Assembly (NCBI GenBank): GCA_036004365.1
Contig: DASYRN010000045.1
Span: 7,637-71,636, forward strand
From: Candidatus Binatia bacterium
GTDB lineage: Bacteria; Desulfobacterota; Binatia; UBA9968
Length of the DNA: 64,000 bases
Direction of reading: 5' to 3'
The notes under the pieces are model-generated. The model made no database searches and was not told the DNA's origin. It saw only the letters and a program-made list of their open reading frames with translations. This document shows positions 9,882-52,091 of the stretch, piece after piece (within the stretch, counting starts at the first letter, position 1; each line of letters begins with the position of its first letter). The translations under genes were made by a program, and so were the position numbers.

Positions 9882-10952
9882 ATGTTAACCGTTGCTTATG
9901 CCATCGTTTCAGCCCTTATAGGGTTAGGGGTTTTGATCATTATTCACGAGTTGGGCCACTTCCTTGTGGCCAAAAAGCTCGGCGTGGGGGTTTTAACCTT
10001 TTCAGTCGGCTTTGGCCCCAAGCTCTTAAAGCGAAAGATCGGTGAAACCGAATACGCCTTGAGCGCCTTCCCCCTTGGAGGATACGTCAAAATGATTGGA
10101 GAGGATCCGGAGGAAGAGGTTAGCCAGGCGGATATCGAGCGATCTTTTTCCCACCAGGGAGTCGGAAAGCGCGCGGCGATCGTTGCCGCGGGTCCGCTGT
10201 TTAACCTGCTGCTCGCTGTCGTACTCTTCGGCGCCATCTTCATGTTCTACGGGGTCCCGCTCCTGACAACCCGAATCGCCGGCGTTGAGCCGGGTTCTCC
10301 AGCCGCGAAGGCGGGGATACAAAAGGGTGACCGCGTCGTTGCCGTAGACGGCGACGCGATAAGAGAATGGGAGGAGCTTTCGGCTCGGATCAAGCAAAGT
10401 CAGGGCAAACCTTTACAGCTAACGGTTCAAAGAGCGGATCAGGAGATCACCGTCACGGTTCAGCCGACCATGAGAGAGGGAAAAAACATCTTCGGAGAAA
10501 CAATAGACACCTGGGTCATTGGAATCGCCAGCGAGGTCTCGATGGAAAAAAGCAACCCTTTGTTGGCGATCGGAAATGGATTTTACAAGACCGGAGAATA
10601 TTCGGTTCTCACCCTGCTCGGCCTTGTGAAGATGATCAGAGGGGATGTGTCGCCGAAAAATCTCGGCGGTCCTCTTTTGATCGCCCAGATGGCTGGCCAG
10701 CAGGCGCAAGAGGGGCTGGCAAGTTTTTTATTTTTCGTCGCGATACTGAGTGTCAATCTTGGAGTATTGAATCTCCTGCCGATTCCCGTTCTTGACGGCG
10801 GCCATCTGCTTTTTTTCCTGATCGAGTCGCTCTTGGGCCGGCCGGTTGAGGTAAAACATCGGGAGAGGGCGCAGCAGATCGGAATTTTTGTTCTGATCCT
10901 CATCATGGTTTATGCCTTCTATAACGATATCTCCAGGTTATTCGAAGGATAA
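9882..10952 (+). CDS. rseP: RIP metalloprotease RseP (site-2 protease, single PDZ)
   Basis: 356 aa. HELGHF zinc motif in TM1, a PDZ segment, and C-terminal NLLPIPVLDGGH. Confidence 0.9.
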   Translation: MLTVAYAIVSALIGLGVLIIIHELGHFLVAKKLGVGVLTFSVGFGPKLLKRKIGETEYALSAFPLGGYVKMIGEDPEEEVSQADIERSFSHQGVGKRAAIVAAGPLFNLLLAVVLFGAIFMFYGVPLLTTRIAGVEPGSPAAKAGIQKGDRVVAVDGDAIREWEELSARIKQSQGKPLQLTVQRADQEITVTVQPTMREGKNIFGETIDTWVIGIASEVSMEKSNPLLAIGNGFYKTGEYSVLTLLGLVKMIRGDVSPKNLGGPLLIAQMAGQQAQEGLASFLFFVAILSVNLGVLNLLPIPVLDGGHLLFFLIESLLGRPVEVKHRERAQQIGIFVLILIMVYAFYNDISRLFEG

Positions 10953-19258: not shown

Positions 19259-19498
19259 ATGAAGAGCGTATCTTATAAAGGCCACGTCATTGAGCTTGTC
19301 TCGCAAAAGCTTCGGTCCGGAAGATGGATTGCTCGCGCGACAGTGATCATCAATGAAGCGAATACCGTCAAAATGATCCCTATCTTCGGTCGCCGTCGAG
19401 CCAGCTTTGATAACCGGCGGGAGGCCGACGCCTATGCTTTGGAGCTGGCGAGGCTGTGGGTGGAGGGGAGAATCTGGGGAGCGAACGGCCACGGATAG
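19259..19498 (+). CDS. small hypothetical protein
   Basis: 79 aa from the ATG at 19259, preceded by GAAGAGGG. No family recognised. Confidence 0.35.
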   Translation: MKSVSYKGHVIELVSQKLRSGRWIARATVIINEANTVKMIPIFGRRRASFDNRREADAYALELARLWVEGRIWGANGHG

Positions 19499-20058: not shown

Positions 20059-20155
20059 TCAGAAAGGATGAGGGCGAAAGGATAAGGGATGAAAGTAAGT
20101 TAAAATCGAAAAGCGTGTCGGTTGTAAAGCTGGGAACGGTAAAGACACGACTAAC

Positions 20156-20794: not shown

Positions 20795-20929
20795 CCAATG
20801 ATCTCCTCTTGGTCTTTTGTGAATCCATAGGACTACGCCAGAGTCGAGAATTCCCGAAGGGTCGAAATGGACGTGCGCCTGTCTTTTGCTAAGCGGTAGC
20901 TAAGAGGCAGGAGAGAGAACGCGAGGGTA

Positions 20930-21244: not shown

Positions 21245-21509
21245 GAACCGCGGAATCAGCCATTAACGATCGCGCTGAATACGGCTGACATTTGTTGAGA
21301 ATTCTTACGCATTGGCCAGAATTGTCATTTTGGACGATCTTCGTTCCATTTAAACCACTATGAGTGCGATTCTTAACTTCACCCAAAAGACCGCAAATCC
21401 TTTAAAAAACCGCGTCTTGTGTTGCTAAGCTAAAGATTGGCATGGATTGTGCTACATCTTTTCCGCTCTTGTGGGGGGTCGAAAGAGTAAAGCAGACCTC
21501 GAAATTTTA

Positions 21510-24295: not shown

Positions 24296-24383
24296 GTAAG
24301 TTTGATTTCCCATACGGATAGATTAACACATACCAAAGGCAACAGGAACCGCCTCTTCAAAGAAAGCCGCGTTAAAGTATAAA

Positions 24384-24410
24384 GGGGCGTACTGATCTAC
24401 GCCCCTTTTT
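24384..24410. terminator. intrinsic-terminator hairpin (GGGGCGTA-loop-TACGCCCC) flanked by A and T runs, usable from both strands
   Basis: AAAGGGGCGTACTGATCTACGCCCCTTTTT lies immediately downstream of the RRM gene. Confidence 0.6.
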
Positions 24411-24431
24411 GCTTAGATTCTACAAGATAGG

Positions 24432-24746: not shown

Positions 24747-25307
24747 GTTCTCCTCCTTTAGAAAAATGTTAGTGTCTTTCACCCTGGAATCTGATTACCG
24801 CGGGAGCAGAACATGGGGTTGGAACCCAGCGCTGGCCGGATTATCCTCCAAGGTAATACTTCGCAAGGAAAGACTCCCCCCGAGCCTTAAACTTTTATCT
24901 GTCTCACTTTCAGAAGGCCCCATACTGAAGTGACTTTAGCTTGTCTTGTTTGCCCTCTCGGTGCAACGGAGCCGGGCGCGTCCTTTATCGTGCAGACGAC
25001 GGCTCGACACGAGCCCAAGTCACTATCATTCTAGGGTCGTCCGACGCAAGAGGTAGGCGGCGCGCAAGAAAACGTTGGAACAGAATGCGCAAAGAGGCCA
25101 AGAGCTTTTTGAGCGATATAAAGGGGTGTAGGAAGCCTCCGATAGTGCCTATTAATGTCGTGTTAATGGAAGGGGAGGTTGGGTCCTCCAGGAACCAAGC
25201 ATGCTTTATGAAACGCGATCGTATCCTTTCGATGGTGGTCTCTGGGTCCGACCAGCACCTAAGGCGCATCGACTCCGGAAGAATTATTTTAACCAACCGG
25301 CGACCGT

Positions 25308-25321
25308 TTGAGAATTCTCAA
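25308..25321. repeat. 14-bp perfect palindrome TTGAGAATTCTCAA, copy 1
   Basis: Read directly. Shared flanks are CG-TTT on the left and GA(A)G(G)TCAAAA on the right. Confidence 0.9.
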
Positions 25322-25613
25322 GAAGGTCAAAATGAACAAACGCGTCAAAGATGACGTTTTTGCAATTGCGAGAGTACGAAAATGTGGTTTGAAGCCTGTC
25401 TAGCGGATCTTCTTTTATAAACGCAGTGGATGTCTGTCAAGTAGGAAAAAGGAAAAAAGGGGAGGATTTCCGAAATATCCAAAAAGCCGCGATCGTGGTC
25501 GTGAAATGTGATCAGGCAGCAGGCCGCGTTGGCGGAATAGCAAGGCAACCGATTTAATCGAGGTTTAAAAAAAAAGCTTGACAGCCCGCGCGACCGCGAT
25601 ATACCTAGGTCCC

Positions 25614-25901
25614 ATGACCGGCATGGAACTCATAAAGCTCAGAAAGCGACTGTCTATGACGCAAACCAGTCTCGCCCGCGCCGTCGGAATGAAGAGAAAA
25701 TCGGTCATTCTCATGGAGCGGGGAGAGGAGCCCATCTTAAGGACCACCGAGCTGTCGGTGAGGCTGCTGCTGCTGAAGAAGCAAGCTGCGAGGTTCGTAT
25801 TGCGGATAAAAGGGAGAAGACGCTATAGGCCCCGGCCGCGGCAAAACGGAGCTTCACTGTCAGAAATCTTGTCGCATCTTTCTACAGATAGACGGGAATA
25901 A
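25614..25901 (+). CDS. XRE-family helix-turn-helix protein
   Basis: LIKLRKRLSMTQTSLARAVGMKRKSVILMERGEEP. TTGACA at 25578 and TATACC at 25600 sit directly upstream, so the transcript may be leaderless. Confidence 0.65.
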   Translation: MTGMELIKLRKRLSMTQTSLARAVGMKRKSVILMERGEEPILRTTELSVRLLLLKKQAARFVLRIKGRRRYRPRPRQNGASLSEILSHLSTDRRE

Positions 25902-25989
25902 TCCTGACTGGCTTGAGGAGAAAAAAAAGAGACAGGCCATTTTTTCGTTGAAAACGGAAAGCTGACAACGGAAAAAGCTGCCAGCGTTT

Positions 25990-26229
25990 TCATTCCTTTC
26001 GGGCCTTTTCTCCACTTTCCCGTATTCTCTTACCGGCCTCTTTCATTGCCTCGCCGGCTTTTTCCATCGCTTGACCCGTTTGTTCCTTGGCCTTCTCCAT
26101 TGCTTGATCGACAGCCTTGCCCGTTTTTTCCATAGCACCTTTATCGTCTTCGGATTTTGAGCAGGAGCCCAAGGCAAGCGCAGACAGTCCGACGAGCAAT
26201 GCCAGGCACACGTTTTTGATCAGCTTCAT
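25990..26229 (-). CDS. small lipoprotein with AMEKxG(K/E)A repeats
   Basis: Signal peptide plus lipobox MKLIKNVCLALLVGLSALALGSC. RBS GGAGGG. Repeated KAVDQAMEKAKEQTGQAMEKAGEAMKEAGK. Confidence 0.55.
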   Translation of the reverse strand: MKLIKNVCLALLVGLSALALGSCSKSEDDKGAMEKTGKAVDQAMEKAKEQTGQAMEKAGEAMKEAGKRIRESGEKARKE

Positions 26230-26384
26230 TTGTCGGTTACCCTCCTCGTCCAAGTCTTAGTCTAATCCCTATAATAAAAACTCTTGGCACACAAGAAAGG
26301 TTTCTTGACAATCTGGAAGGTTGCGGAATGGGTTGGTTCTCTTAATGTCACAGGGGTTAAAATCCCGTCGGGATGCCACTGGCA

Positions 26385-26666
26385 TCAGTCGGATGCCTTT
26401 GGTTTCGGCGGCCCCGGATATCGGGTAGCAGCCTGGTTTGAAAAGCCATCTAATGCGGCGAGTTGACGCGCGAGGTCGAAGATGGTGTTCTCGATGGCCA
26501 TCCTGGAGGCCTCAATCTCATCGAGCGTTGATCGCGCTATCCCTACCGCTTCCACGAGCTTTACTCCCTCGGGCCGCCTTGCCAGTATCGTGAGACGGTA
26601 ATCGGCCTGGAAAACGCGCCAGTTGAGATAGACGCTTCGCACCTCAGCCTGTAGGTCTGAGGACAT
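26385..26666 (-). CDS. hypothetical protein, possibly the 3' part of a degraded gene
   Basis: 93-aa ORF. The reading frame stays open upstream of the ATG and neighbouring frames carry related-looking text (see findings). Confidence 0.35.
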   Translation of the reverse strand: MSSDLQAEVRSVYLNWRVFQADYRLTILARRPEGVKLVEAVGIARSTLDEIEASRMAIENTIFDLARQLAALDGFSNQAATRYPGPPKPKASD

Positions 26667-27091
26667 ATACCGGATCGAAACGGGAGCAGCGGGATCGTCC
26701 TCCAGGACGTAGAAAAGCGCCCGGCCGACGTGGTACTCCCCCCACTTAACTCCGGAGTATCGACACTTCCCACAGCTCGGCGAGAGCCGGATCGACCTGC
26801 ACCTTTACCCTTCGCTCTGGCGGAAGCTGGTAGCGCTGGTCGAAGAGGACCGTTTGGCCTCAGGCGCCAAGCCCGAGCGAAAGGAAAAACAAAGTGAAAA
26901 GGGAGGTCTTGCTCATGAGACGATCTGCAATTTCTTAGCATCTCTCCTAAAAGAGTAAAAGCCCCCGCAAGATAAAGGATGAAGGATAAGGGAAAGATGC
27001 TCATAAGACAGCGGACTTTCGGGGCCGTTCAAAGAATTTTGCTGGTGGCCACATCGAAGCTGTGCTATGTTGGTATGAAATTTTGAGAGCG

Positions 27092-27793
27092 ATGCGAAAG
27101 ACAGGTTTTGCTGCGCGAGATTTTCTCTTCTCGTGCCGATTGATTGTTTTCTGCTTATTTTCTCTATCTTGCTCTATACCCCCGAAGATTCCCACAGTTG
27201 CCGATGAGCGGCTCGAGGCCATGGTTAGAAATGAGGCCTCCGAGATCATAGAAGTGACCCCGGATAAAGAGGAGCTTTCTCGGTATCAGATTTTTCTGTC
27301 AGCCTTTCCCCGGAAGGATATATTAGGAGTGAGTGTCGGGAACCGTCGTATTTATATCAGTTATGAGCTGGTACAACTCGCGTTCAACAGTCCCCGCTAT
27401 CGTTGGCTGCTGAGGCAGACCTTGGCCCACGAGATTGCGCATGAAATAGCGGGGCATGCGAAAGATAGGCGAGTTGTCTCCTACAGTCCTTTTACGTTCG
27501 GCCGCGGCGTGACAGGCGGAGATATCGGCCTTCCGTCGAGCGTGCGATTCCATCATTATTCGGCGGAAAAAGAACTGGAGGCGGATTTAAACGGAATGAA
27601 GTACTGGAGAAAGCTTCAGTGGGACTGCCGGATCTGGGTGCGCATCTTGAGGCAATATTTTCAGATCAACTACACGGGCGATATTTTTCATCCGACAGAC
27701 GAGCGCCTAAGACAAGCATTGAGCGTGTGCCTTCCAGAGTCAGATCCGGAGCGGATCGCTATAGAGAAGAGACTCGAGGCAGTGAGGAGGTAG
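27092..27793 (+). CDS. M48-like zinc metalloprotease (HExxH) with N-terminal membrane/signal segment
   Basis: LAHEIAHEIAGH motif and a downstream E (EKELEAD). Confidence 0.6.
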   Translation: MRKTGFAARDFLFSCRLIVFCLFSLSCSIPPKIPTVADERLEAMVRNEASEIIEVTPDKEELSRYQIFLSAFPRKDILGVSVGNRRIYISYELVQLAFNSPRYRWLLRQTLAHEIAHEIAGHAKDRRVVSYSPFTFGRGVTGGDIGLPSSVRFHHYSAEKELEADLNGMKYWRKLQWDCRIWVRILRQYFQINYTGDIFHPTDERLRQALSVCLPESDPERIAIEKRLEAVRR

Positions 27794-27952
27794 GCAGGCC
27801 GATCTAAGAAAGGTACAAAGGCCCGTGCTCGTGATCGTGAAACGTCATCGTGACTAAAGACAAGGATGAAGTATAAGGGATGGAAGCAGAAAAAGAAGTG
27901 GACGTGATCGCGACTCGTGTGCGTGGAAACTTAGCAGACGCCTTGTGTGAGA

Positions 27953-28348
27953 TTATTGCTCTAAATCGGAAGCTCTCACCCAGCCGACAGCACCCGTCGA
28001 ACTCTTAACCATATACCACAGTCCGCTGCTACCAGCCGCCTTAGCCATTACTGTAAGCGTGTCTCCTCGCTCCAGTTTAGCGACGAGCGGTGAATACTCG
28101 TCCTGGCGGGCGTAGAGATGGACCTCGCTCTGCTTGACCGCGAGGAGAGCGGAGACCGGCGCCTGTGATCCTGCCGGAGCGTTGACGGAGTGTCTGTTTG
28201 CAGCAGGACTCCTCGTGTTTACCCCACGGCGGCTCTCCTTTAGAGCTCCGGTTTGTTTTCCGTATTCGAAGATGGCTTGAGCATCGCTTCTCTCGGCCAT
28301 AACCATGAAGAGCATGGGCACCCAAACCACGGCTAGCACGTGCTTCAT
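27953..28348 (-). CDS. secreted bacterial SH3-domain protein
   Basis: Signal peptide MKHVLAVVWVPMLFMVMAERSDAQA. C-terminal SH3b-like text LYARQDEYSPLVAKLERGDTLTV...WYMVKSSTGAVGWV. Confidence 0.65.
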   Translation of the reverse strand: MKHVLAVVWVPMLFMVMAERSDAQAIFEYGKQTGALKESRRGVNTRSPAANRHSVNAPAGSQAPVSALLAVKQSEVHLYARQDEYSPLVAKLERGDTLTVMAKAAGSSGLWYMVKSSTGAVGWVRASDLEQ

Positions 28349-28409
28349 AGCCTCCCAATTATAGTCGCGAGAGAAGGTCGCCGCAATTCAGTGAGCGGCA
28401 CGGACAAGA

Positions 28410-28480
28410 GATGAGGGATGAATGATAAAAGATAACGGATGAAGGATCGAAGCGGAAAGAGGAAAAGAGAAAGAGAAAAA
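28410..28480. repeat. ten consecutive degenerate heptads (GATGAGG GATGAAT GATAAAA GATAACG GATGAAG GATCGAA GCGGAAA GAGGAAA ...)
   Basis: GAT at 28410, 28417, 28424, 28431, 28438 and 28445. G continues at 28452, 28459 and 28473. Confidence 0.9.
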
Positions 28481-28625
28481 AGACCTGATCGGATTCGTGC
28501 TCGTCATCGTAAAGGAACAGCCTTGACACGTTTTCGGCCTTCGAATAGGTTAGTTTTGGCCAAGTCGTTGATCCTCAAGAGACGTGCACGTGTTCGAGAT
28601 TCGTGTTCGTGTAAACTTGCACGTT

Positions 28626-28639
28626 TTGAGAATTCTCAA
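28626..28639. repeat. 14-bp perfect palindrome TTGAGAATTCTCAA, copy 2
   Basis: Read directly. Confidence 0.9.
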
Positions 28640-28870
28640 AGCTTCGAAAAGCGCCACGATCGTCTTCGTGGAACGTGATCGTGAACAAGAACTGATGCTG
28701 TTATCACTTTTACGATTGCGCAAGTGCGCAAATGAGAAAATGTCCCAAGGCGCGAGCCTTGAGGTATGAGGACAAAAGGTGAGGATGATTCAGGAGGAAC
28801 GATAGCGGAACAAGGGAAAACGGCGGGGAGAAGAGGCTGGAGAGACCGGATAATTTTTTCTACGAGGAAG

Positions 28871-29686
28871 ATGGCGGCAACAAACCGCACCCGGAGAATT
28901 AAGGGAGTGGTTCGGGTCTGCGGGCTGTTCTTCCTGTACGATCTACTTGCTGTTTCCCCCGGTTTTTCCTGGCATGACAAAGGCCATCGCGTTGTGGCGA
29001 TCATCGCCCAGGCGAATCTCACCCCGGAGGCCAAAAAACGGATTCAGGAGATAGTACCTTCAGGCACCACTCTCGCCGACGCAGCCGTCTGGCCGGACTA
29101 CGAAGGGAGAAAAGTGGGAGATTTGGATCCGCTCCACTACGTCAGTATTTCCGACGGCGCCAACGGCTACGATCAAGCGCGTGACTGTCCGGAGAAAAAC
29201 TGTATGGTTGAAGCACTCAAGTGGTTTTCATCGAACATCGCCGACGAGAATGCCCCGACCGTCATGAGACGAATCGCTCTGCGGTATGTCGCGCATCTGG
29301 TCGGTGACCTGCACCAGCCGCTGCATGCGGGCAGGGCAACGGATCGAGGCGGCACGGATATCACGGTGACGTATAGAAGACAGACGACCAACCTGCACTT
29401 CTTTTGGGATAAAGACTTAGTGGAGATGGAAGAAGGAAACGCAGAGGAGGTAGCTGAGCGGCTTGGGGCGAGCCTTACTGAAGAGGAACGTCTTAAATGG
29501 CGGGCGGGCGACCCGAAACAATGGACTGATGAGTCGCTCGTGCTTGCAAGATCCTATGCGTACCCTATAGGGGGATCCTTTGAGCTTTCTGACGACTACG
29601 TAGAAAGGGCCCGACCGATTGTGCGAGTAAGGCTTGTTCAGGCTGGGATAAGATTAGCATGGTTGCTGAACATGGCTTTCAAATAG
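28871..29686 (+). CDS. S1/P1-family zinc nuclease, secreted
   Basis: W-H-x-x-GH after the signal segment, WPDYEGR, LHYVSI, CPEKNCMVEAL, ALRYVAHLVGDLHQPLH and GGTDITV...NLHFFWD match fungal P1 / plant S1 landmarks from memory. ATG at 28871 after GAGGAAG. Confidence 0.85.
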   Translation: MAATNRTRRIKGVVRVCGLFFLYDLLAVSPGFSWHDKGHRVVAIIAQANLTPEAKKRIQEIVPSGTTLADAAVWPDYEGRKVGDLDPLHYVSISDGANGYDQARDCPEKNCMVEALKWFSSNIADENAPTVMRRIALRYVAHLVGDLHQPLHAGRATDRGGTDITVTYRRQTTNLHFFWDKDLVEMEEGNAEEVAERLGASLTEEERLKWRAGDPKQWTDESLVLARSYAYPIGGSFELSDDYVERARPIVRVRLVQAGIRLAWLLNMAFK

Positions 29687-29693
29687 GATTGTT

Positions 29694-30071
29694 ATGAAAC
29701 CGCACCTTGTGTCAGGGCTAGGGCTCTTGCTAGGGGTTCTTGCCGCAAAGAGCGCACCCGCCGCGATGTATTGCGGCGACACACTGATAGACAAAGGGAT
29801 GACGAAGCTGGACGTCATCTCAAAGTGTGGCCAGCCTGATTTACGGGAAGTGACCTCGCTAGTTTTCCAGGTAAGGGAGGTCTGGCACTATAACTGCGGC
29901 GAGGGCAGGCTGAACAGGAGCCTTGTCTTTGAGGGCGAGACGCTTGTATCGGTCCAGGAAAGCAAAGTTACGGCAGCGGCCCGGAGAAGTGCAAATAAAA
30001 CGGAACTAATAGCAAGGAAGCACGAGGCAGCGATACGCTTCATTCCCGGCCGGGATCGAGCTCAATGCTGA
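29694..30071 (+). CDS. DUF2845-like secreted protein
   Basis: Signal peptide, then C..TLIDKGMTKLDVISKCGQPD...EVWHYNCGEGRLNRSLVFEGETLVSV. Confidence 0.65.
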   Translation: MKPHLVSGLGLLLGVLAAKSAPAAMYCGDTLIDKGMTKLDVISKCGQPDLREVTSLVFQVREVWHYNCGEGRLNRSLVFEGETLVSVQESKVTAAARRSANKTELIARKHEAAIRFIPGRDRAQC

Positions 30072-30321
30072 TGAGCTCGTAGCGTTCCGAAGAATACTCT
30101 CCCCGTTGTCTCAGGCTTTCTCGACGTTGGCGGTCGAGCACGGCGTGGTCCTGGTGTATCCGCTGCTGTTGTTCGTCCTGCCTCTGTTCTCGAACCTGGA
30201 GAAGTTCACCGACGGGAGCACCAGCCCCTCGCTCAAGGCTACTACAACCGATAGGAGTCATTAGAAGAGTTACCGCAATCAACTCTATAGAGAGGTTCTT
30301 CGCGTAACCAAACCGAATCAT
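30040..30321 (-). CDS. putative small lipoprotein, Gln/Arg-rich
   Basis: LLMTPIGC lipobox-like N-terminus. Overlaps the 3' end of the DUF2845 ORF by about 30 nt. Confidence 0.4.
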   Translation of the reverse strand: MIRFGYAKNLSIELIAVTLLMTPIGCSSLERGAGAPVGELLQVREQRQDEQQQRIHQDHAVLDRQRRESLRQRGEYSSERYELISIELDPGRE

Positions 30322-30676
30322 AATCCTCCTCCTCGAGATTTTGGTGCAAGGGCTTTTGCCCGAGACAGCTGACGCGATGCAAGCGATATACCAAGGGCCA
30401 GAATAATTAAACCGTGGATTGTTAAAGGGATTGGAAGTTCGGCTCTTCTGACACGGTCCCTAATTGTTATGGAAAGGCCTAAATTGTACCGTCAAGTAAC
30501 TTGATCGTTGTCTAAGAGGAATGGGATCCTCGTCTTGATCTTGGATTCTTGAGCCAGGTCACCCGGTCTGCCATGTGTATCTTGGCGATCCAAGAAAGGG
30601 ACGAGGCAAGAGGTGATAGGCGATAGTTTTTAGTCGCTCTCGCAACTATTGTATATTATAACATGGCTCTCGCGTT

Positions 30677-30690
30677 TTGAGAATTCAAAA
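30677..30690. repeat. half-degenerate copy of the palindrome (TTGAGAATTCAAAA), copy 3
   Basis: Read directly. The left flank CGCGTTT is conserved. Confidence 0.7.
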
Positions 30691-30746
30691 ATGTAAAAAC
30701 GAGTTAATGATGGAATCTTGCCCTATACGATTGTAACATTGGATAG

Positions 30747-30893
30747 GACCGAATTGCCGGCTTGATGACTTCCTATGGATACGCGAATATTCTCCACGCC
30801 GGTTTCTGCGCCTTGGAGCTTCTTGAATGGGAAGTCGATCAGGTTTTGGGCGTTGGGCCTTTCACGTCCGCCGAATTGCGCGCCGATCGTTAG
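30747..30893 (+). pseudogene. 3' remnant of a YciI-family gene (paralogue of 35809-36117)
   Basis: 30798-30893 aligns with 36022-36117 with 12 mismatches in 96 nt (hand count), including a 30-nt identical run. Translation ..IAGLMTSYGYANILHAGFCALELLEWEVDQVLGVGPFTSAELRADR*. An in-frame TAG at 30744 cuts off the rest. Confidence 0.7.
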
Positions 30894-30941
30894 CAGTTGG
30901 AGATTCACATCTTCGGCGGAAGATTTGAGAAGGAGGTATCC

Positions 30942-31031
30942 ATGTTGGCCATTCTTCCCCCGCTGATAATGATTCTTCTCGTAGCTCTTATTTTCTATCT
31001 TGCCTGGTGGGACGCTAACAGACGTAAGTAG
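30942..31031 (+). CDS. possible 29-aa hydrophobic peptide MLAILPPLIMILLVALIFYLAWWDANRRK
   Basis: Strong SD GAAGGAGG 6 nt before the ATG. One TM helix plus a basic tail. Below the ORF-track size cutoff. Confidence 0.45.
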   Translation: MLAILPPLIMILLVALIFYLAWWDANRRK

Positions 31032-31155
31032 AAGTAAAAAGGCGTTGGGACAGCCATTGTGCGTCGGGCAATTCAATCGGAGCTAACGTTGAGGACGCAA
31101 AGCAGCACAAAGTGGCCGAGTTTATCACCGAAGGTAAGACAAGAAAGGAGAATCT

Positions 31156-31605
31156 ATGCCGAGAGTGACTTCGTTGGGTCATGTAGGCCTTTACGTGGGC
31201 GACATTGAGCGTTCCAAGGCATTTTATCGGGATATCCTTGGCCTGAAGGTGAGCGACGAGAGTCCCAACAGGGGCGCAGTATTCATGACGGCCAAAGACC
31301 GGCTGGAAGAGCACCACGAGCTCCTGCTCATGCCGGGCCGAGAGGATGGCAAAGTCGTCCAGCAAGTTTCTTTCCGCTGTGCCAGCCTCGCCGATATCAA
31401 AGACTTTTACCGAGTTTTTTTGCAGAACAAAATCCCCATCAACCGCATCGTAAGCCACGGCAATGCTATAGGGATCTATTTTCAAGATCCCGACGGAAAC
31501 CAGATCGAAGTTTACTGGCCCACCGGCATCGACTGGCCCCAGCCCTTTGGGAAGCCGGTCGACCTGGCCGTAACCGACGAGGAGATCCTTGCGCAGCTGA
31601 CGTAG
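31156..31605 (+). CDS. VOC (glyoxalase/bleomycin-resistance/extradiol dioxygenase) family protein
   Basis: 149 aa. LGHVGLYVGDIERSKAFYRDILGLKV. Confidence 0.8.
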   Translation: MPRVTSLGHVGLYVGDIERSKAFYRDILGLKVSDESPNRGAVFMTAKDRLEEHHELLLMPGREDGKVVQQVSFRCASLADIKDFYRVFLQNKIPINRIVSHGNAIGIYFQDPDGNQIEVYWPTGIDWPQPFGKPVDLAVTDEEILAQLT

Positions 31606-31636
31606 CCTGTAAGGCGGGCCTTAAAAAGTAAAAGCA

Positions 31637-32164
31637 ATGTCGAAACGACTGATTTTCCTCCCATGGATGTTGTCTCTACTTCTGCTACCGGCCTGCATCC
31701 ATGGCCTAACGATGCACTCCATGGACGGAGAGACCTTAAGCGGAAAGTATCGTTTCGCGCGCGAAGGCAAAGGATTGATCAAGGTCATCCGATCCGATGG
31801 CGAGGTCTTGACGGGCCATTTTGTGACGGTTGGGCCGAAGGCTTTTGTCGAGAGTTTCAAGAAGGCTTTCGGCAGCGGATCTATCGTTGTCTTCGGTCCC
31901 GATGCCTCCGCTTACGGAAATGCCTTCGGAGGCACCTTTGCAAGTGCGCACGGGACTGCAGGGGCTGCCTATGGCGAGACGTTCAATACCGGCTCCGGTC
32001 AATCCACAACCGTGGTGACCGGGCCGCGTTTTTACTGGACGGCATTCCTTCAGGGCAGTGGAGGAACAACGATGGCATGTTTTTTCATCGGCTCCTCGTA
32101 TACGGGTCACGGATTTGGAAGATGTAAGAGCAACATGGGGAAGGAGTATAGTGTAGAGTTTTAA
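31637..32164 (+). CDS. putative lipoprotein, Gly-rich
   Basis: MSKRLIFLPWMLSLLLLPAC lipobox. Confidence 0.55.
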   Translation: MSKRLIFLPWMLSLLLLPACIHGLTMHSMDGETLSGKYRFAREGKGLIKVIRSDGEVLTGHFVTVGPKAFVESFKKAFGSGSIVVFGPDASAYGNAFGGTFASAHGTAGAAYGETFNTGSGQSTTVVTGPRFYWTAFLQGSGGTTMACFFIGSSYTGHGFGRCKSNMGKEYSVEF

Positions 32165-32523
32165 GATCTCTAGTCTTTTTTCAGAGGTCAAAATAAATAG
32201 TAGATGAGCGTGCTCGATCCTGCCATTGTCTCACGTTTGCGTGATTGCGACGAAGAAACAGTGGCCTGTCGGCCCGGATATCTGAGCGGTCGGGGACGGA
32301 TACTCCTCCTGCGTTGTCTCTAACCGAATTTCCGGAGAGTTGTTCATAATTGTCATATTGGACGGTTTCGGTCCACTTACCACGAGCCCTTATTCGACTT
32401 GTGAGCGGGAAATCCTTTTTAAAAACCACATATTGTATTGATAGGCCAAAATAAGGGCCTTTGGCATGAATTATGAATCTTATCCACTATATAGGCCCAT
32501 CTATCTTAAGAGAGCGATCCCTT

Positions 32524-33954
32524 ATGCGAGACGTCGCAATAGCAACCGAGGCAGCATCACTTTCCAAGGAATGTCCTGGATGTGGCGCTCTCCTGGAACT
32601 GACTCTCGAGGCGTGCTGGAAATGCGGCGGAAAAGTCGAACCGGATATTCCCACAGCGCCGTACGAAGAGAAACGACCCTTCAAGCCCTATCTAGACAGA
32701 AGCGCCGACCTTGGAAGAGAGGTCTACGAACGGCTTATCCAAGCCTTTTCAGAAGTGAATCCCCGCGAAAGACCCTGGTGTGGCATAGGGGTTAAAGCTG
32801 ACCTTCTCGCGGTATCACCAAGATCCGTGACAGTCGCGGTGATAAAGGAGCTGAGCGGGGTCAAGAAAGGCCTCGTTCATGTCTCGCAGAATTGGCGGGA
32901 ACCTTGGCAGGTAGAAACCGTCGATAGGGAGAAACATCAGATACGAAGCAATCCTTGCGAGCAGGCGGAGCGGGCGATCAGCGCTGTCAAAAGTAGTCTC
33001 AAGTCTTTTCTCAAGGCCAATGAGCAGGCTGTATTCCCGCGCATAAAGTGTTTAATCGTTTTCCCCGATGGATACGACTTTGAAGGGCCAAAGGATTTTT
33101 CCATGCTCGACCACGACGGGGTGATCACGCTGAGTCTACTAAACTTTCGTGATTTACCGGATGCGATATTACGACCGACGGACCACGAAGGACTGGATTC
33201 CCGGCAGTACAGGAAATGGATTGAAGAACTTCTAAGGAGCAACGATGAGTCCACCCTCGGGACATGGCTTGATCCGGCCTTCGATAAGCCGGAGCCGGAG
33301 CCGCCCAAGAGACAGCTCTGGCGGTTACGTTATCCGCGCCGCCGAAAAGTGCCGGCAAAGGAAGAGGAACTCTCTTGGTCAAATAGTCCGCGAAAGAGAT
33401 CGGTCCAGGCGAAATTGAAGGGGACTCGACTCAAATTTACCGTGACGGTTATCACGGGTATGCTCGTTGGAATGGTCGGATGGCAAATGTATAGTGTTGG
33501 GGAACATACCGCGCCGCCTCCACGCGCGGAAACTACCCCTGAAGTCACTCAAGCGGTGCCACCCCAAGATGTCCCGTTGTCAACGGAACTCGAGAAGGAG
33601 GAGATATTGCCTCCGCCGCAGCCAGTAGAATCCCGCGAACCGCAGGCGCCTATAGCGCCGAAAGAGGATCAACCCATCAAAGGCGCGAATAAATCTGAGG
33701 TCACCCGCACTCAGGCTCCTGGCGATTTAGAGCTCAAGCGGCAGAAGGTGGAACTCAAGATCCATGATGCTATTCTCCGTCGCGCGATCACCGGTGTGAC
33801 GGTTTACTTCGCCGGGGACACGGCTTACCTCCGCGGCCAGGTCGAGACCGAAAACCAAAAATCTGCTGCCGAAAAGGCCGCGAGGAGCGTCCCGGGGGTT
33901 AAGGAAATCCGCAATTCAATTGAGGTCAATCCCCCATCCCCTGCGGATGGCTAG
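32524..33954 (+). CDS. Zn-ribbon / NERD-like / TM / Pro-rich linker / BON domain fusion protein
   Basis: CPGCG..CWKCGG. NERD-like text ADLLAVSPRSVTVAVIKELSG....W.....NPCEQAERAISAVKSSL. TM LKFTVTVITGMLVGMVGWQMY. C-terminal BON text VTVYFAGDTAYLRGQVETENQKSAAEKAARSVPGVKEIRNSIEV. Confidence 0.65.
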   Translation: MRDVAIATEAASLSKECPGCGALLELTLEACWKCGGKVEPDIPTAPYEEKRPFKPYLDRSADLGREVYERLIQAFSEVNPRERPWCGIGVKADLLAVSPRSVTVAVIKELSGVKKGLVHVSQNWREPWQVETVDREKHQIRSNPCEQAERAISAVKSSLKSFLKANEQAVFPRIKCLIVFPDGYDFEGPKDFSMLDHDGVITLSLLNFRDLPDAILRPTDHEGLDSRQYRKWIEELLRSNDESTLGTWLDPAFDKPEPEPPKRQLWRLRYPRRRKVPAKEEELSWSNSPRKRSVQAKLKGTRLKFTVTVITGMLVGMVGWQMYSVGEHTAPPPRAETTPEVTQAVPPQDVPLSTELEKEEILPPPQPVESREPQAPIAPKEDQPIKGANKSEVTRTQAPGDLELKRQKVELKIHDAILRRAITGVTVYFAGDTAYLRGQVETENQKSAAEKAARSVPGVKEIRNSIEVNPPSPADG

Positions 33955-34030
33955 CCTGATGACGGCCAGATAACACTTCGCTTTTCCTTCAGATCAAAGT
34001 AAAGAGCAGCGAGCGTCCGCTGACTGTCCC

Positions 34031-34486
34031 TCAAGTTTGATTACTAATGAACTGAAATATCTTTGCAGCGGCGTCAGCGCCGGTCGTCGTTGTCGTGTCG
34101 ATTCTTATAGTCGGATTGTTCGGCGGCTCCATTCGATGGAACATGATGTGGAGTGCTTTTTCGGATATATTCGGCTGCCGTTCTCGATTGCGCCGAAGAG
34201 CGACCTCTAAGGGGCAATCAAGAAAAACGGTTACAACTCTCTCCGCTTGTGCCCGCGCTTTGACCTGGCACCGCCATTCCTTTTTGTAAAACGTGGCGTC
34301 AAAAATTAGGAAATCCGTTCTCCTCCGATCGGGCGCCAGCGCATTGAAAAACTTCCGGTAGACCGGCGGTCTTAGCCTGTCGGAACTCAAGATCTGAACG
34401 CTGCCTAATTCAGCGAGGCGCTCGGCCAGCTTTTCTGCTATCGTACTCTTACCCGATCCGGGAATGCCGCAAAAGAGAATAATCAA
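34031..34486 (-). CDS. P-loop kinase, KTI12/PSTK-like (AAA_33-type)
   Basis: Walker A ILFCGIPGSGKST. The later text LIFDATFYKKEWRCQV...FLDCPLEVALRRNRERQPNISEKALHIMFHRMEPP resembles archaeal O-phosphoseryl-tRNA kinase / KTI12 as I recall them. Confidence 0.7.
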   Translation of the reverse strand: MIILFCGIPGSGKSTIAEKLAERLAELGSVQILSSDRLRPPVYRKFFNALAPDRRRTDFLIFDATFYKKEWRCQVKARAQAERVVTVFLDCPLEVALRRNRERQPNISEKALHIMFHRMEPPNNPTIRIDTTTTTGADAAAKIFQFISNQT

Positions 34487-34514
34487 TAAGATATGTTCGT
34501 GACGCCGCGCTGGG

Positions 34515-34772
34515 CTATCGGCGGGGTCGGGCGAGCCTCATCGCTTGCTCAATGGTGGGAATGATCTCGGGGCAACATTGCCTGGCGATTTCGAGAATGA
34601 TGCGCGCTTGGTTCTGGTCACAGGGGATCGTGTAGCCTTTAAAAAATACGCCCTCAAACGAATGATCAATTCGCGTGGCCTTGGCAATGGCCTCATAGGC
34701 GGGAGACTCAACGGGAATTCGACTCCGCAGTCGGTCAAAGTGTGGAGGAGCGACCTTAATGAATATCTCCAT
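34515..34772 (-). CDS. hypothetical protein
   Basis: 85-aa ORF between the kinase and phosphatase genes on the same strand. Confidence 0.4.
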   Translation of the reverse strand: MEIFIKVAPPHFDRLRSRIPVESPAYEAIAKATRIDHSFEGVFFKGYTIPCDQNQARIILEIARQCCPEIIPTIEQAMRLARPRR

Positions 34773-34894
34773 GGCGCCACCTCACCAAAAATACGTTAGG
34801 ATGCTCAATTCAACCTACCAAATAGGGCCGTTATTTCAATGCGGGTCCGTCAACCTTCACCGGTCGAGTTTCCCAAAACCCGCTCGTCAAGGCA

Positions 34895-35350
34895 TCACAC
34901 TCTAGTAGCAAAACGGATCGCATCGATATTAGGTAAGCAAGAGCGGCATTGGGTGACGTGTGCGACGGCGGCGTCCAAATCCCAGCCGCAGCACCAAGAG
35001 AGATACGCGACCGCGACCGTAGGAGATCGGCCAGCGCCGGCGGAGCAATGGAGATAGACTGTATGGCCAGACTCCATGAGCTCGTTTAGCGCGGACACGC
35101 ACGCCGGGAGCTTGTCTTGCAGATCGACTGGGTCCAAGTCGCGCACTGGGACACGACAAGGGTGAATGCGGCAGATTTGGTAGTGGGTTGCCAGCGAATT
35201 CCAATCCAGGCTAAAGTGCTGCATGTCCTCGTCGGTTTGTAGATTGAGCACAGCCGAAATGGCGGCATCGCGCTTTAATATCTCGATGTCACCAGCGCTT
35301 CCTGGGTAGGAACCGACAAAGAGTTTGGAAAGAATCTGATGGTAATCCAT
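34895..35350 (-). CDS. dual-specificity (Cys-based) phosphatase, DSP domain only
   Basis: Active site HCSAGAGRSPT (HCx5R[ST]). Flanking text NLQTDEDMQHF, VRDLDPVDL..KLPA and RSCLPNIDAIRFAT resembles plant SEX4/LSF glucan-phosphatase DSP domains from memory. Confidence 0.8.
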   Translation of the reverse strand: MDYHQILSKLFVGSYPGSAGDIEILKRDAAISAVLNLQTDEDMQHFSLDWNSLATHYQICRIHPCRVPVRDLDPVDLQDKLPACVSALNELMESGHTVYLHCSAGAGRSPTVAVAYLSWCCGWDLDAAVAHVTQCRSCLPNIDAIRFATRV

Positions 35351-35444
35351 AGCTTGGGTAGGTCGTAAGGAGTGAGGCGTAAACAGGAGAACCCCTTGCA
35401 CGTTTTACGTTTCACTAGCCATGACTATCATCCTGACGTTACGG

Positions 35445-35666
35445 TCACGGACTCTCTTTGACGGCGAGAAGTGAGGCCAGCGGGCACAACACTTTGTATT
35501 CGGCTTTGCCTGTTTTTTCTTTCCAGCTGGCGGCGCCTGGAGCTCCGTCAATGAATTCGTAAGCATCCACGCCGAATGTGCTTTTACCGTCAATCAGCAG
35601 GACTTCGTGCCATCCGTCGGCAAGCAGCACATAACGCACTTTCTCTACATTGAGCTTCAGAGCCAT
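35445..35666 (-). CDS. hypothetical protein
   Basis: 73-aa ORF, first gene of the same-strand run 35666->34031. Confidence 0.4.
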   Translation of the reverse strand: MALKLNVEKVRYVLLADGWHEVLLIDGKSTFGVDAYEFIDGAPGAASWKEKTGKAEYKVLCPLASLLAVKESP

Positions 35667-35808
35667 GTTTTGCCTCCTTTCCTCAGGATCCGAACGTTGC
35701 GTTCGAGGTTCCTTGTCGTGATATTTTATCAGGATTCAAGGCTCGCTCCAGGGGTAGGCCCGCTAAGGGGTAAAGGATGCAATAAACTATAAAAGCTAGG
35801 AGGACAGC

Positions 35809-36117
35809 ATGTGGTATCTGATCCATCGTAAGCCCATACGACCGCGTGAGGAATGGACCGTGAGTCTCGACGAGCATCTTGTCTGGATGAAACAGCAGCA
35901 CGAGGCCGGCCGGATCCTTTTTTCCGGCCCGACCCGGGATCGCACGTTGGGGATTTACGCGATACGCGCCGGCTCCAGGGAAGAAGCCGAGCGGATCGCC
36001 GGCAGCGATCCTTACACGAAGGCCGGTTTCTGCGCTTTCGAGCTTTTTGAGTGGGAGGTGCACCAAGTTTTGGGCGTCGGGCCTTTCACGTCCGCCGAAT
36101 TGCGCGCCCATCGCTAG
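35809..36117 (+). CDS. YciI-family protein
   Basis: 102 aa. RiLfSGPt....G.yaIRAgSrEEAerIAgsDPy. Confidence 0.8.
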   Translation: MWYLIHRKPIRPREEWTVSLDEHLVWMKQQHEAGRILFSGPTRDRTLGIYAIRAGSREEAERIAGSDPYTKAGFCAFELFEWEVHQVLGVGPFTSAELRAHR

Positions 36118-36153
36118 CGGTCTACAAGGAGCTCAGAAGAGCACTTTCACCGT

Positions 36154-36167
36154 TTGAGAATTCTCAA
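36154..36167. repeat. 14-bp perfect palindrome TTGAGAATTCTCAA, copy 4
   Basis: Read directly. Lies between the convergent YciI and pdaD stops. Confidence 0.9.
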
Positions 36168-36200
36168 GAGTCAAAAGGATTTGGGAACAAGAAAAGGACT

Positions 36201-40229: not shown

Positions 40230-40444
40230 GACGAGATGGGTAAAAAGGTAAGAGCTGGGAAGAAATTACGCGATAAGTAAGAGTAGAGACTGCAAATTAT
40301 AGCTGGAGGATTGCTCCTTTGGGCGTTTCCTCTAACGTGGGCTTTTCACGTTTCGACTATTTTCGAAATGTCGAAACGATGAGCGGCGCTTGTTCGGACA
40401 AGCGATTGACTCATTTGATGCGGCTGTGATAGCGCTCGAAAGCC

Positions 40445-51845: not shown

Positions 51846-52091
51846 AACATACCGCTTTTGCGGATGCTAACTTACTCTCCCCGTTTTTAGCAATGACGGC
51901 CAGCATGAAAGGTAGAGCGTTGGTATCCGTAAGCCGCTTCATCTAAGTCATTTCGACATTTCGGGAATTCTCGAAGCATGGAAGCGTGGCAGAAGCTCCC
52001 GCTGGAATTGAATGTGCGGGCGGCAGCGGCGGGTGTCGTCAACTATGTCGGTGCAAAACGATGGCGAAGATGAGAGAATGCGCCGGGAACG

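Follow-up and report, generated by a model that had tools for sequence, protein, structure and literature searches.

The 14-bp palindrome TTGAGAATTCTCAA that recurs in a 64,000-nt stretch of Candidatus Binatia bacterium DNA (contig DASYRN010000045.1; hereafter the window) is the inner dyad of an approximately 40-bp element, a high-copy and almost purely intergenic repeat of a Binatia lineage that has not been described before. On balance we favor the element being a putative binding site of a lineage-specific family of 99-aa ArsR/SmtB-like proteins, multiplied at transcription-unit boundaries. An initial annotation of the window had proposed the footprint of a dimeric DNA-binding protein, and this is the reading that we prefer, because the variant cores of the element stay palindromic and appear to track the recognition helix of a winged-helix family. 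Its alternative suggestion, part of a small dispersed element, was also right, the approximately 40-bp element being found at more than 300 places. The element combines traits of repetitive extragenic palindrome (REP)-like repeats and of regulator-operator sets.

The element, its variants and its abundance

Exact copies of TTGAGAATTCTCAA are present three times in the window, at positions 25308, 28626 and 36154 as annotated initially, compared with 0.00 matches expected from 100 dinucleotide-preserving shuffles; with up to 3 mismatches allowed, there are 11 window sites versus 3.4 expected. The degenerate fourth copy, the common left flank CG(T)T-TT and the same polarity of these four copies, and the right flank GA(A)G(G)TCAAAA common to copies 1 and 4, are all as originally described. 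However, four was an undercount, as the window contains eight family members (Table 1), those overlooked being TCGAGAATTCCCGA at 20844, its exact reverse complement at 51961, TTGAGAATTCTTAC at 21295 and a decayed-center copy at 40353-40366. Similarly, the 14-bp palindrome is real but is not the whole conserved unit, which is approximately 40 bp: the flanks of the 20844 and 51961 copies (tail ..TCGAAATG) indicate that the unit is asymmetric and longer than 14 bp.

Alignment of the copies gives the consensus gGAACTTnCACGTT-TTGAGAATTCTCAA-AACGTCAAAATGA, with a left arm that can be summarized as ACTTnCACGTT. It includes a perfect 24-nt palindrome and is slightly asymmetric, the outer arms differing in a fixed way. 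Since both neighboring genes usually lie on the strand opposite to the written consensus, its complement, 5'-TCATTTTGACGTTTTGAGAATTCTCAAAACGTGnAAGTTCC, is named here the gene-sense strand. The element is composed of four 8-bp units about a GAATTC center, reading [CATTTTGA][CGTTTTGA]GAATTC[TCAAAACG][TGnAAGTT] on the gene-sense strand. Its variants preserve the palindrome: type 1 is TTGA-GAATTC-TCAA, type 2 is TCGR-GAATTC-YCGA, and type 3 is (T)YCG-GAATTC-CGR(A), with arms that hardly change from type to type. Inner and outer 8-bp units show a correlation in their type-specific base (Fisher p=4e-21 and 1e-12), which hairpin pairing does not require, whereas four equivalent reading heads would.

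How widespread is the element? The bare 14-mer is scattered over all phyla in 185,579 reference genomes, as expected by chance; the family flanks are missing from these hits, whose flanks are unrelated, and the 14-mer alone is not special outside this Binatia lineage. When metagenomes were scanned for the palindrome followed by the tail N2-6 TCRAAA, at least 120 loci were obtained, mostly from soil, vadose-zone and sediment samples. The 120 metagenome loci listed, selected only by this DNA motif, make up the locus set used below (L numbers), and further loci were fetched later. A profile derived from the copies finds 268 sites in the 0.58 Mb of the first contig set and 337 in 0.77 Mb with the later loci, and the density peaks at 1-2 per kb in toxin-antitoxin/defense islands (11 sites in 6.5 kb of L147, and 19 within a 14-kb island of L247). 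There was no match to the 24-nt palindrome in viral contigs and no element match among plasmids, and we found no relevant literature on either the sequence or Binatota repeats. With this element, the list of repeated extragenic elements known from bacteria extends to a lineage for which none had been described. A DNA uptake sequence would be a short motif in excess as single copies, in either orientation and within genes too, and such a role was considered and dropped: half-units are at chance level outside the full window sites, and 94% of sites are intergenic and oriented.

Site type and the recognition helix of an ArsR-like protein

What might read such a site? The commonest module between sites is a gene encoding a 99-aa winged-helix protein that matches Pfam HTH_20 (PF12840; score 27.0 versus a cut-off of 27), which is found in about 25 of the 120 motif-selected loci listed. 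The protein scores 34-49 bits with the NCBIfam ArsR/SmtB model NF033788, below the cut-off of 55, and its nearest solved relatives in the PDB are CmtR (E=6e-4) and ArsR (6e-3). Among 240 database homologues its recognition helices fall into discrete classes, and database homologues number in the hundreds for each of the three. A VSTISIHL-like helix pairs with type 1 sites, a VQTVSGHL-like helix with type 2, and VQRVSTVL with type 3; helix class and site type are on the diagonal for 21/21 upstream and 22/24 downstream sites, counts that include six loci fetched afterwards expressly to test the pattern. Every full-length ArsR-like gene has a site before its start codon, centered 54-62 nt upstream in classes 1 and 2 and 26 nt upstream in class 3, and a second site 20-34 nt past its stop. 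In classes 1 and 2 the upstream site abuts a promoter of the form TTGACA-N17-TAnAnn-N7-ATG.

From this covariation, which is among only three clades, we infer binding. Two ArsR-like dimers would probably bind the four 8-bp units, and there would be at least three specificity classes of ArsR-like protein, one for each site type. Each ArsR-like gene may also be autoregulated, as is implied by the presence of its own site type at its promoter. If the paralogues do bind, they would represent a natural set of orthogonal protein-operator pairs built on one scaffold, with few helix residues matched to few base pairs, reused hundreds of times per genome, and the recognition code would be directly testable.

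The proposed system is reminiscent of the ArsR/SmtB operators bound by SmtB, CzrA and CmtR, which are 12-2-12 inverted repeats occupied by one or two dimers. In both, the binder or candidate binder is a small ArsR-like winged-helix protein, there is a copy of the site at the regulator's own promoter (seen for the element in related loci, the window having no such gene), and a TGA-N6-TCA core lies within a long inverted repeat, which in the element takes the form of a 24-nt palindrome within a 40-bp dyad of a size that fits two dimers. The TGA-N6-TCA core itself resembles the inverted repeats bound by ArsR/SmtB proteins. Unlike those systems, the 99-aa protein falls below the family cut-off already mentioned, and the element exists in hundreds of copies, mostly past stops and strongly oriented, with three co-varying specificity classes. 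The OB-type operators of KorB on IncP plasmids and the CIRCE-HrcA system similarly reuse one palindrome at many transcription units with one dedicated small regulator, but they have about a dozen promoter sites, whereas the element has hundreds of sites at gene ends, on chromosomes. Identity with parS-like, dif-like or hix-like sites was considered and dropped because the spacing or the arm order is mismatched and the copy number is far too high.

The regulator gene singled out by the initial annotation was a different one, encoding an XRE helix-turn-helix protein (25614-25901) with a weak HTH_3 match, and copy 1 does lie 293 bp upstream of it. However, of the eight window copies just one has the XRE gene for a neighbor, no XRE gene adjoins the hundreds of family members elsewhere, and the site variants co-vary instead with the ArsR-like family. 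The XRE gene is not supported as the partner, and we regard it as a most improbable candidate.

Several observations concern the ArsR-like genes and the element as possible sites of initiation. At L214:1200-1270, L247:5880-5950, L225 and L158, the TTGACA-N17-TAnAnn box of the ArsR-like gene ends about 7 nt before the ATG and there is no Shine-Dalgarno sequence, which suggests leaderless transcripts in the lineage. The conserved ATG of the AAAATGA tail of the element was considered as a leaderless start codon and rejected, the downstream open reading frames (ORFs) having chance-like lengths. Rejected too was a promoter within the element, either of the extracytoplasmic function sigma type (GGAACTT-N17-TCAAA) or of the sigma-70 type: the neighboring genes are mostly on the opposite strand, and TTGACA occurs right after a site almost only at ArsR-like genes. 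Frameshifted or truncated ArsR-like genes are present at L194, L196, L128, L214:4152-4337, L216:3638-3805 and L228:3310-3630, suggesting that this gene family turns over fast, like toxin-antitoxin genes.

Placement at gene ends and in toxin-antitoxin and defense islands

Our own gene calls came from a codon-usage model that had been trained on long ORFs; by these, 184 of 195 unique sites (about 94%) are intergenic. In co-directional spacers the ratio of sense to antisense sites is 81:10, and 28:7 after aggressive clustering of related loci; on contigs with at least 4 sites, 185 of 192 share the orientation of the contig majority. According to public gene calls, a sense gene precedes 17/19 sites in L247 and 10/10 in L248, many of the sites being 0-40 nt past the stop, and on three long contigs nearly every small island gene or operon has a site after it. 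The initial description of the window copies as lying mainly in promoter spacers was correct in that copies 1 and 2 are in divergent spacers, and in that copy 4 lies between convergent stops, those of a YCII gene and a pyruvoyl arginine decarboxylase gene in public gene calls. As a picture of the family it is incomplete, the usual position being just after a sense-strand stop codon. The element reliably marks transcription-unit ends and the sense strand in Binatia contigs, and can be used in their annotation.

The site-rich islands are populated by toxin-antitoxin and defense genes, including BrnT/A, HicAB, Phd/ParE, VapBC, PemK, zeta, MqsA, DUF433/DUF5615, ORF6N, 23S_rRNA_IVP, BREX and Dnd. 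Sites can also form direct doublets about 65 nt apart whose order along the sense strand is fixed: a type 2 or type 3 site precedes a type 1 site in 29 pairs versus 2. The same modules recur among contigs in different orders and neighborhoods, and 60 of 235 internal breakpoints of inter-contig homology are within 30 nt of a site, compared with about 3% expected from the DNA share of the sites and their margins. One junction, L125 versus L187, was read base by base, and there a site remains attached to the upstream gene, and homology stops at the distal edge of this site. A per-position homology profile intended to place the crossover was abandoned as too noisy, most pairs homologous in one flank only reflecting a hypervariable spacer and not a new context.

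Other repeats share these intergenic regions. On the gene-sense strand, the 20-130 nt past a site show a 4-6 fold enrichment of CACGA, and heptad-like repeats CGTGnTCGTG (sense CACGAnCACGA) adjoin sites in the window (25488-25505, 27824-27841, 28496-28513, 28583-28600 and 28674-28691) and in L147, L168, L179, L187 and L241. The CACGA repeats could represent a C/A-rich tract akin to a rut site, or else an additional binding array. Purine-rich multi-GGA repeats (AAGGATGAAGGATAAGGGA) are present at 20064-20089, 26969-27016, 27862-27903 and 28408-28447 of the window, and also in L187. A recurrent intergenic motif, ACTTTCyAwTCTAGCCAATCTTGrC, which has a TTGAC box, occurs at L131:3290-3330, L222:7410-7450 and L154:6880-6930, directly after a site in two cases.

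A protein site, a hairpin or a cassette boundary

A number of features weigh against an ArsR-like binding site. A conserved G.G mismatch (127/170) and a sense-strand U.G wobble (127/170) fit a folded single strand and not a symmetric binder, which would also not explain the strong orientation bias. Placement right after stop codons is atypical for classical operators. Point mutation could not have produced a 40-bp site hundreds of times over, and a copying mechanism is needed. The correlation between helix and site rests on three clades and may reflect common descent of site-gene-site modules instead of recognition. In the window, the copies are degenerate, one being half-deleted in a strain with 92-95% identical flanks, and no ArsR-like gene is found there or within about 8-10 kb past either end, both ends having been extended. 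The mismatch, the wobble, the orientation bias and the post-stop position all fit a folded single strand, be it RNA or DNA.

Could the element then act in RNA? The sense transcript of the upstream gene would fold at its 3' end into a 16-bp hairpin, serving as an mRNA stabilizer, a processing mark, or the protected end of Rho-dependent termination with the following CACGA repeats being rut-like. Sense orientation, the position just past stops and the CACGA enrichment past the site are in agreement with this, as is the finding that the sense RNA fold is stabler than the antisense in 189/240 sites (mean -14.2 versus -11.9 kcal/mol); the consensus gives -16.6 kcal/mol (z=-5.3) for sense and -12.4 (z=-3.1) for antisense. 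However, there is no U-tract, the A/U-rich stem leading into AAGUUCC when read on the sense strand and into AAAAUGA when read on the opposite one, and a hairpin needs neither a fixed sequence over hundreds of loci, nor three discrete variants, nor cross-unit correlation. The window copies fold only weakly as RNA (-4 to -14.5 kcal/mol), and there is no Rfam (Rfam 15) match at gathering score anywhere in the window. The organism also uses ordinary intrinsic terminators, as is indicated by a canonical G+C-rich hairpin flanked on either side by T-runs at 24375-24414, after the RRM_1 RNA-binding protein gene. An RNA-level role is in our estimation rather improbable as the explanation of the element, but it would be compatible with protein binding to the DNA.

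A second possibility is that the element is a REP-like mobile palindrome that spreads as folded single-stranded DNA by means of an enzyme such as a Y1 transposase of the REP-associated tyrosine transposase (RAYT) type, the ArsR-like genes being passengers or secondary binders in the way that IHF binds bacterial interspersed mosaic elements (BIMEs). Like proteobacterial REP/BIME sequences and REP doublets (REPINs) with their RAYTs, the element is a short, imperfect, extragenic palindrome of high copy number near gene 3' ends, single or clustered, that marks rearrangement boundaries (the breakpoints and reordered modules described above) and that could also bind protein. The conserved mismatch and wobble, together with compensatory change in the stem, where one position is T-A in 133 cases, C-G in 31 and a non-pair in only 5, would fit such a repeat, and spread by copying would provide what a 40-bp unit must have. 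Y1_Tnp genes (IS200/RAYT-type) are present on two contigs, but neither is visibly flanked by the element: the one at L248:20218-20300, at the edge of a toxin-antitoxin island, is 271 aa and cut by the locus end, the other at L154:6961-7299 is a frameshifted relic, and neither has an adjoining 40-bp element in the DNA at hand. Unlike REP sequences, the element has no GTAG-type 5' tetranucleotide in its consensus, its stem is A/T-rich, its doublets are direct and ordered and not inverted REPIN-like pairs, and its sequence is conserved across otherwise widely differing contigs. Furthermore, inner/outer unit correlation and a match with helix class are unexpected for a plain hairpin element. We consider this origin unlikely.

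Thirdly, the element could be a cassette recombination site, either attC-like or a double-stranded core with two arms about a 6-bp GAATTC crossover, at which toxin-antitoxin and defense modules are inserted or exchanged. The arm-spacer-arm layout resembles the core sites of tyrosine recombinases. As in integron cassette arrays, small ORFs or operons in toxin-antitoxin-rich arrays are each followed by a co-oriented imperfect palindrome, one unpaired position is conserved, the same modules recur in different neighborhoods, and the site stays with the upstream gene, as at the L125/L187 junction. Nevertheless, the R''/R' core boxes RYYYAAC and GTTRRRY are absent, the outer boxes reading TTTTGAC ... 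GTGAAAG, and at about 40 nt the element is shorter than any attC site known to us. Many sites flank ordinary housekeeping genes, as in the window. No integrase or recombinase was found in L245, L247, L248 and L249, viewed with flanks of up to 10 kb either way (shorter at contig ends) and with array ends only partly visible, nor in a motif scan of 0.58 Mb. Recombinase searches returned only the two Y1_Tnp genes and one false tyrosine-recombinase motif. Taken together, a cassette recombination site is very unlikely.

If the element is indeed an ArsR-like binding site, what would it do at gene ends? Speculatively, bound protein at the ends of transcription units could separate densely packed modules as a polar roadblock or insulator, and the shared 40 bp could provide break-and-join points in module exchange. 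The broadest version of this idea, that paralogous ArsR-type proteins and matching, tandem-ordered 40-bp sites at gene ends constitute a protein-addressed punctuation system of polar terminators or insulators, and maybe of exchange points for toxin-antitoxin and defense cassettes, is one that we think doubtful. Were it true, it could be viewed as an integron-like cassette organization without an integrase, or as a REP-like element partnered by a winged-helix protein and not by a RAYT. Binding of these sites by the ArsR-like paralogues, if real, would also give a handle on how dense toxin-antitoxin and defense islands are organized and insulated in a phylum without a cultured member, and on how modules are shuffled.

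The copies in the window

All eight window copies are of type 1 or type 2, and several have arm indels or decayed cores (Table 1). Three are past a sense-strand stop (20850, 30683 and 36160), four are in divergent spacers upstream of a sense-strand gene, and one is antisense.

Table 1. Members of the element family in the window, with profile E values and surroundings
Position	Strand	Site	Sequence	E	Surroundings
20830..20871	+	Type 2	Core TCGAGAATTCCCGA (20844-20857), tail AGGGTCGAAATGG	0.0026	59 nt past stop of minus-strand 86-aa ORF; 36 nt before start of minus-strand CDP-alcohol phosphatidyltransferase gene
21281..21322	+	Type 1, decayed; weak member	Core TTGAGAATTCTTAC (21295-21308)	Not significant	Divergent spacer ahead of PqiA gene
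25294..25335	+	Type 1, copy 1; 1-nt indels versus consensus in both inner arms	Core 25308-25321, tail GAAGGTCAAAATGA	0.0015	Spacer between RRM_1 gene (minus) and XRE gene (plus)
28612..28653	+	Type 1, copy 2; best preserved	ACTTGCACGTT-TTGAGAATTCTCAA-AGCTTCGAAAAG (core 28626-28639)	7.7e-11	127 nt ahead of S1/P1 nuclease start
30663..30704	+	Type 1, copy 3; decayed	Core TTGAGAATTCAAAA (30677-30690)	0.024	
36140..36181	+	Type 1, copy 4	ACTTTCACCGT-TTGAGAATTCTCAA-GAGTCAAAAGG (core 36154-36167)	6.2e-06	Begins 20 nt past stop of minus-strand arginine decarboxylase gene, on its sense strand (family-typical position)
40339..40381	+	Type 2, decayed center	CTTTTCACGTT-TCGACTATTTTCGA-AATGTCGAAACGATGA	2.1e-05	64 nt ahead of luciferase-like monooxygenase gene
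51947..51988	-	Type 2, sole inverted copy	Minus-strand core TCGAGAATTCCCGA, tail AATGTCGAAATGA	7.5e-08	Divergent spacer between terpene-cyclase-like and DinB-type polymerase genes

A related strain, represented by L253, has flanks 92-95% identical to the window. In it, copy 3 is identical, copy 4 differs by about four changes or indels within 40 nt, and an 83-nt deletion (L253:541-720 versus window 28541-28800) removes the right half of copy 2. Decay at this level of identity indicates weak constraint at best on these copies, and we infer that the eight window copies are diverged or decaying examples whose cognate gene would be elsewhere in the genome. Upstream of the S1/P1 nuclease, L253 has another gene, for a glyoxalase, and homology to the window begins 76 nt to the right of the site center.

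Two further repeats were noted in the window. The tail 10-mer GTCAAAATGA also occurs without the palindrome at 10086-10095 and 19367-19376 (0.06 expected per strand); the former is preceded by a GGAGGA Shine-Dalgarno-like box and may mark a genuine start codon at 10093. The segments 30798-30897 and 36022-36121 form a direct repeat of 100 nt with 87% identity; the first of them is the duplicated 3' end of a YciI-family gene, a remnant near copy 3 of the element, and overlaps a minus-strand ORF call (30723-31076) without a Pfam match.

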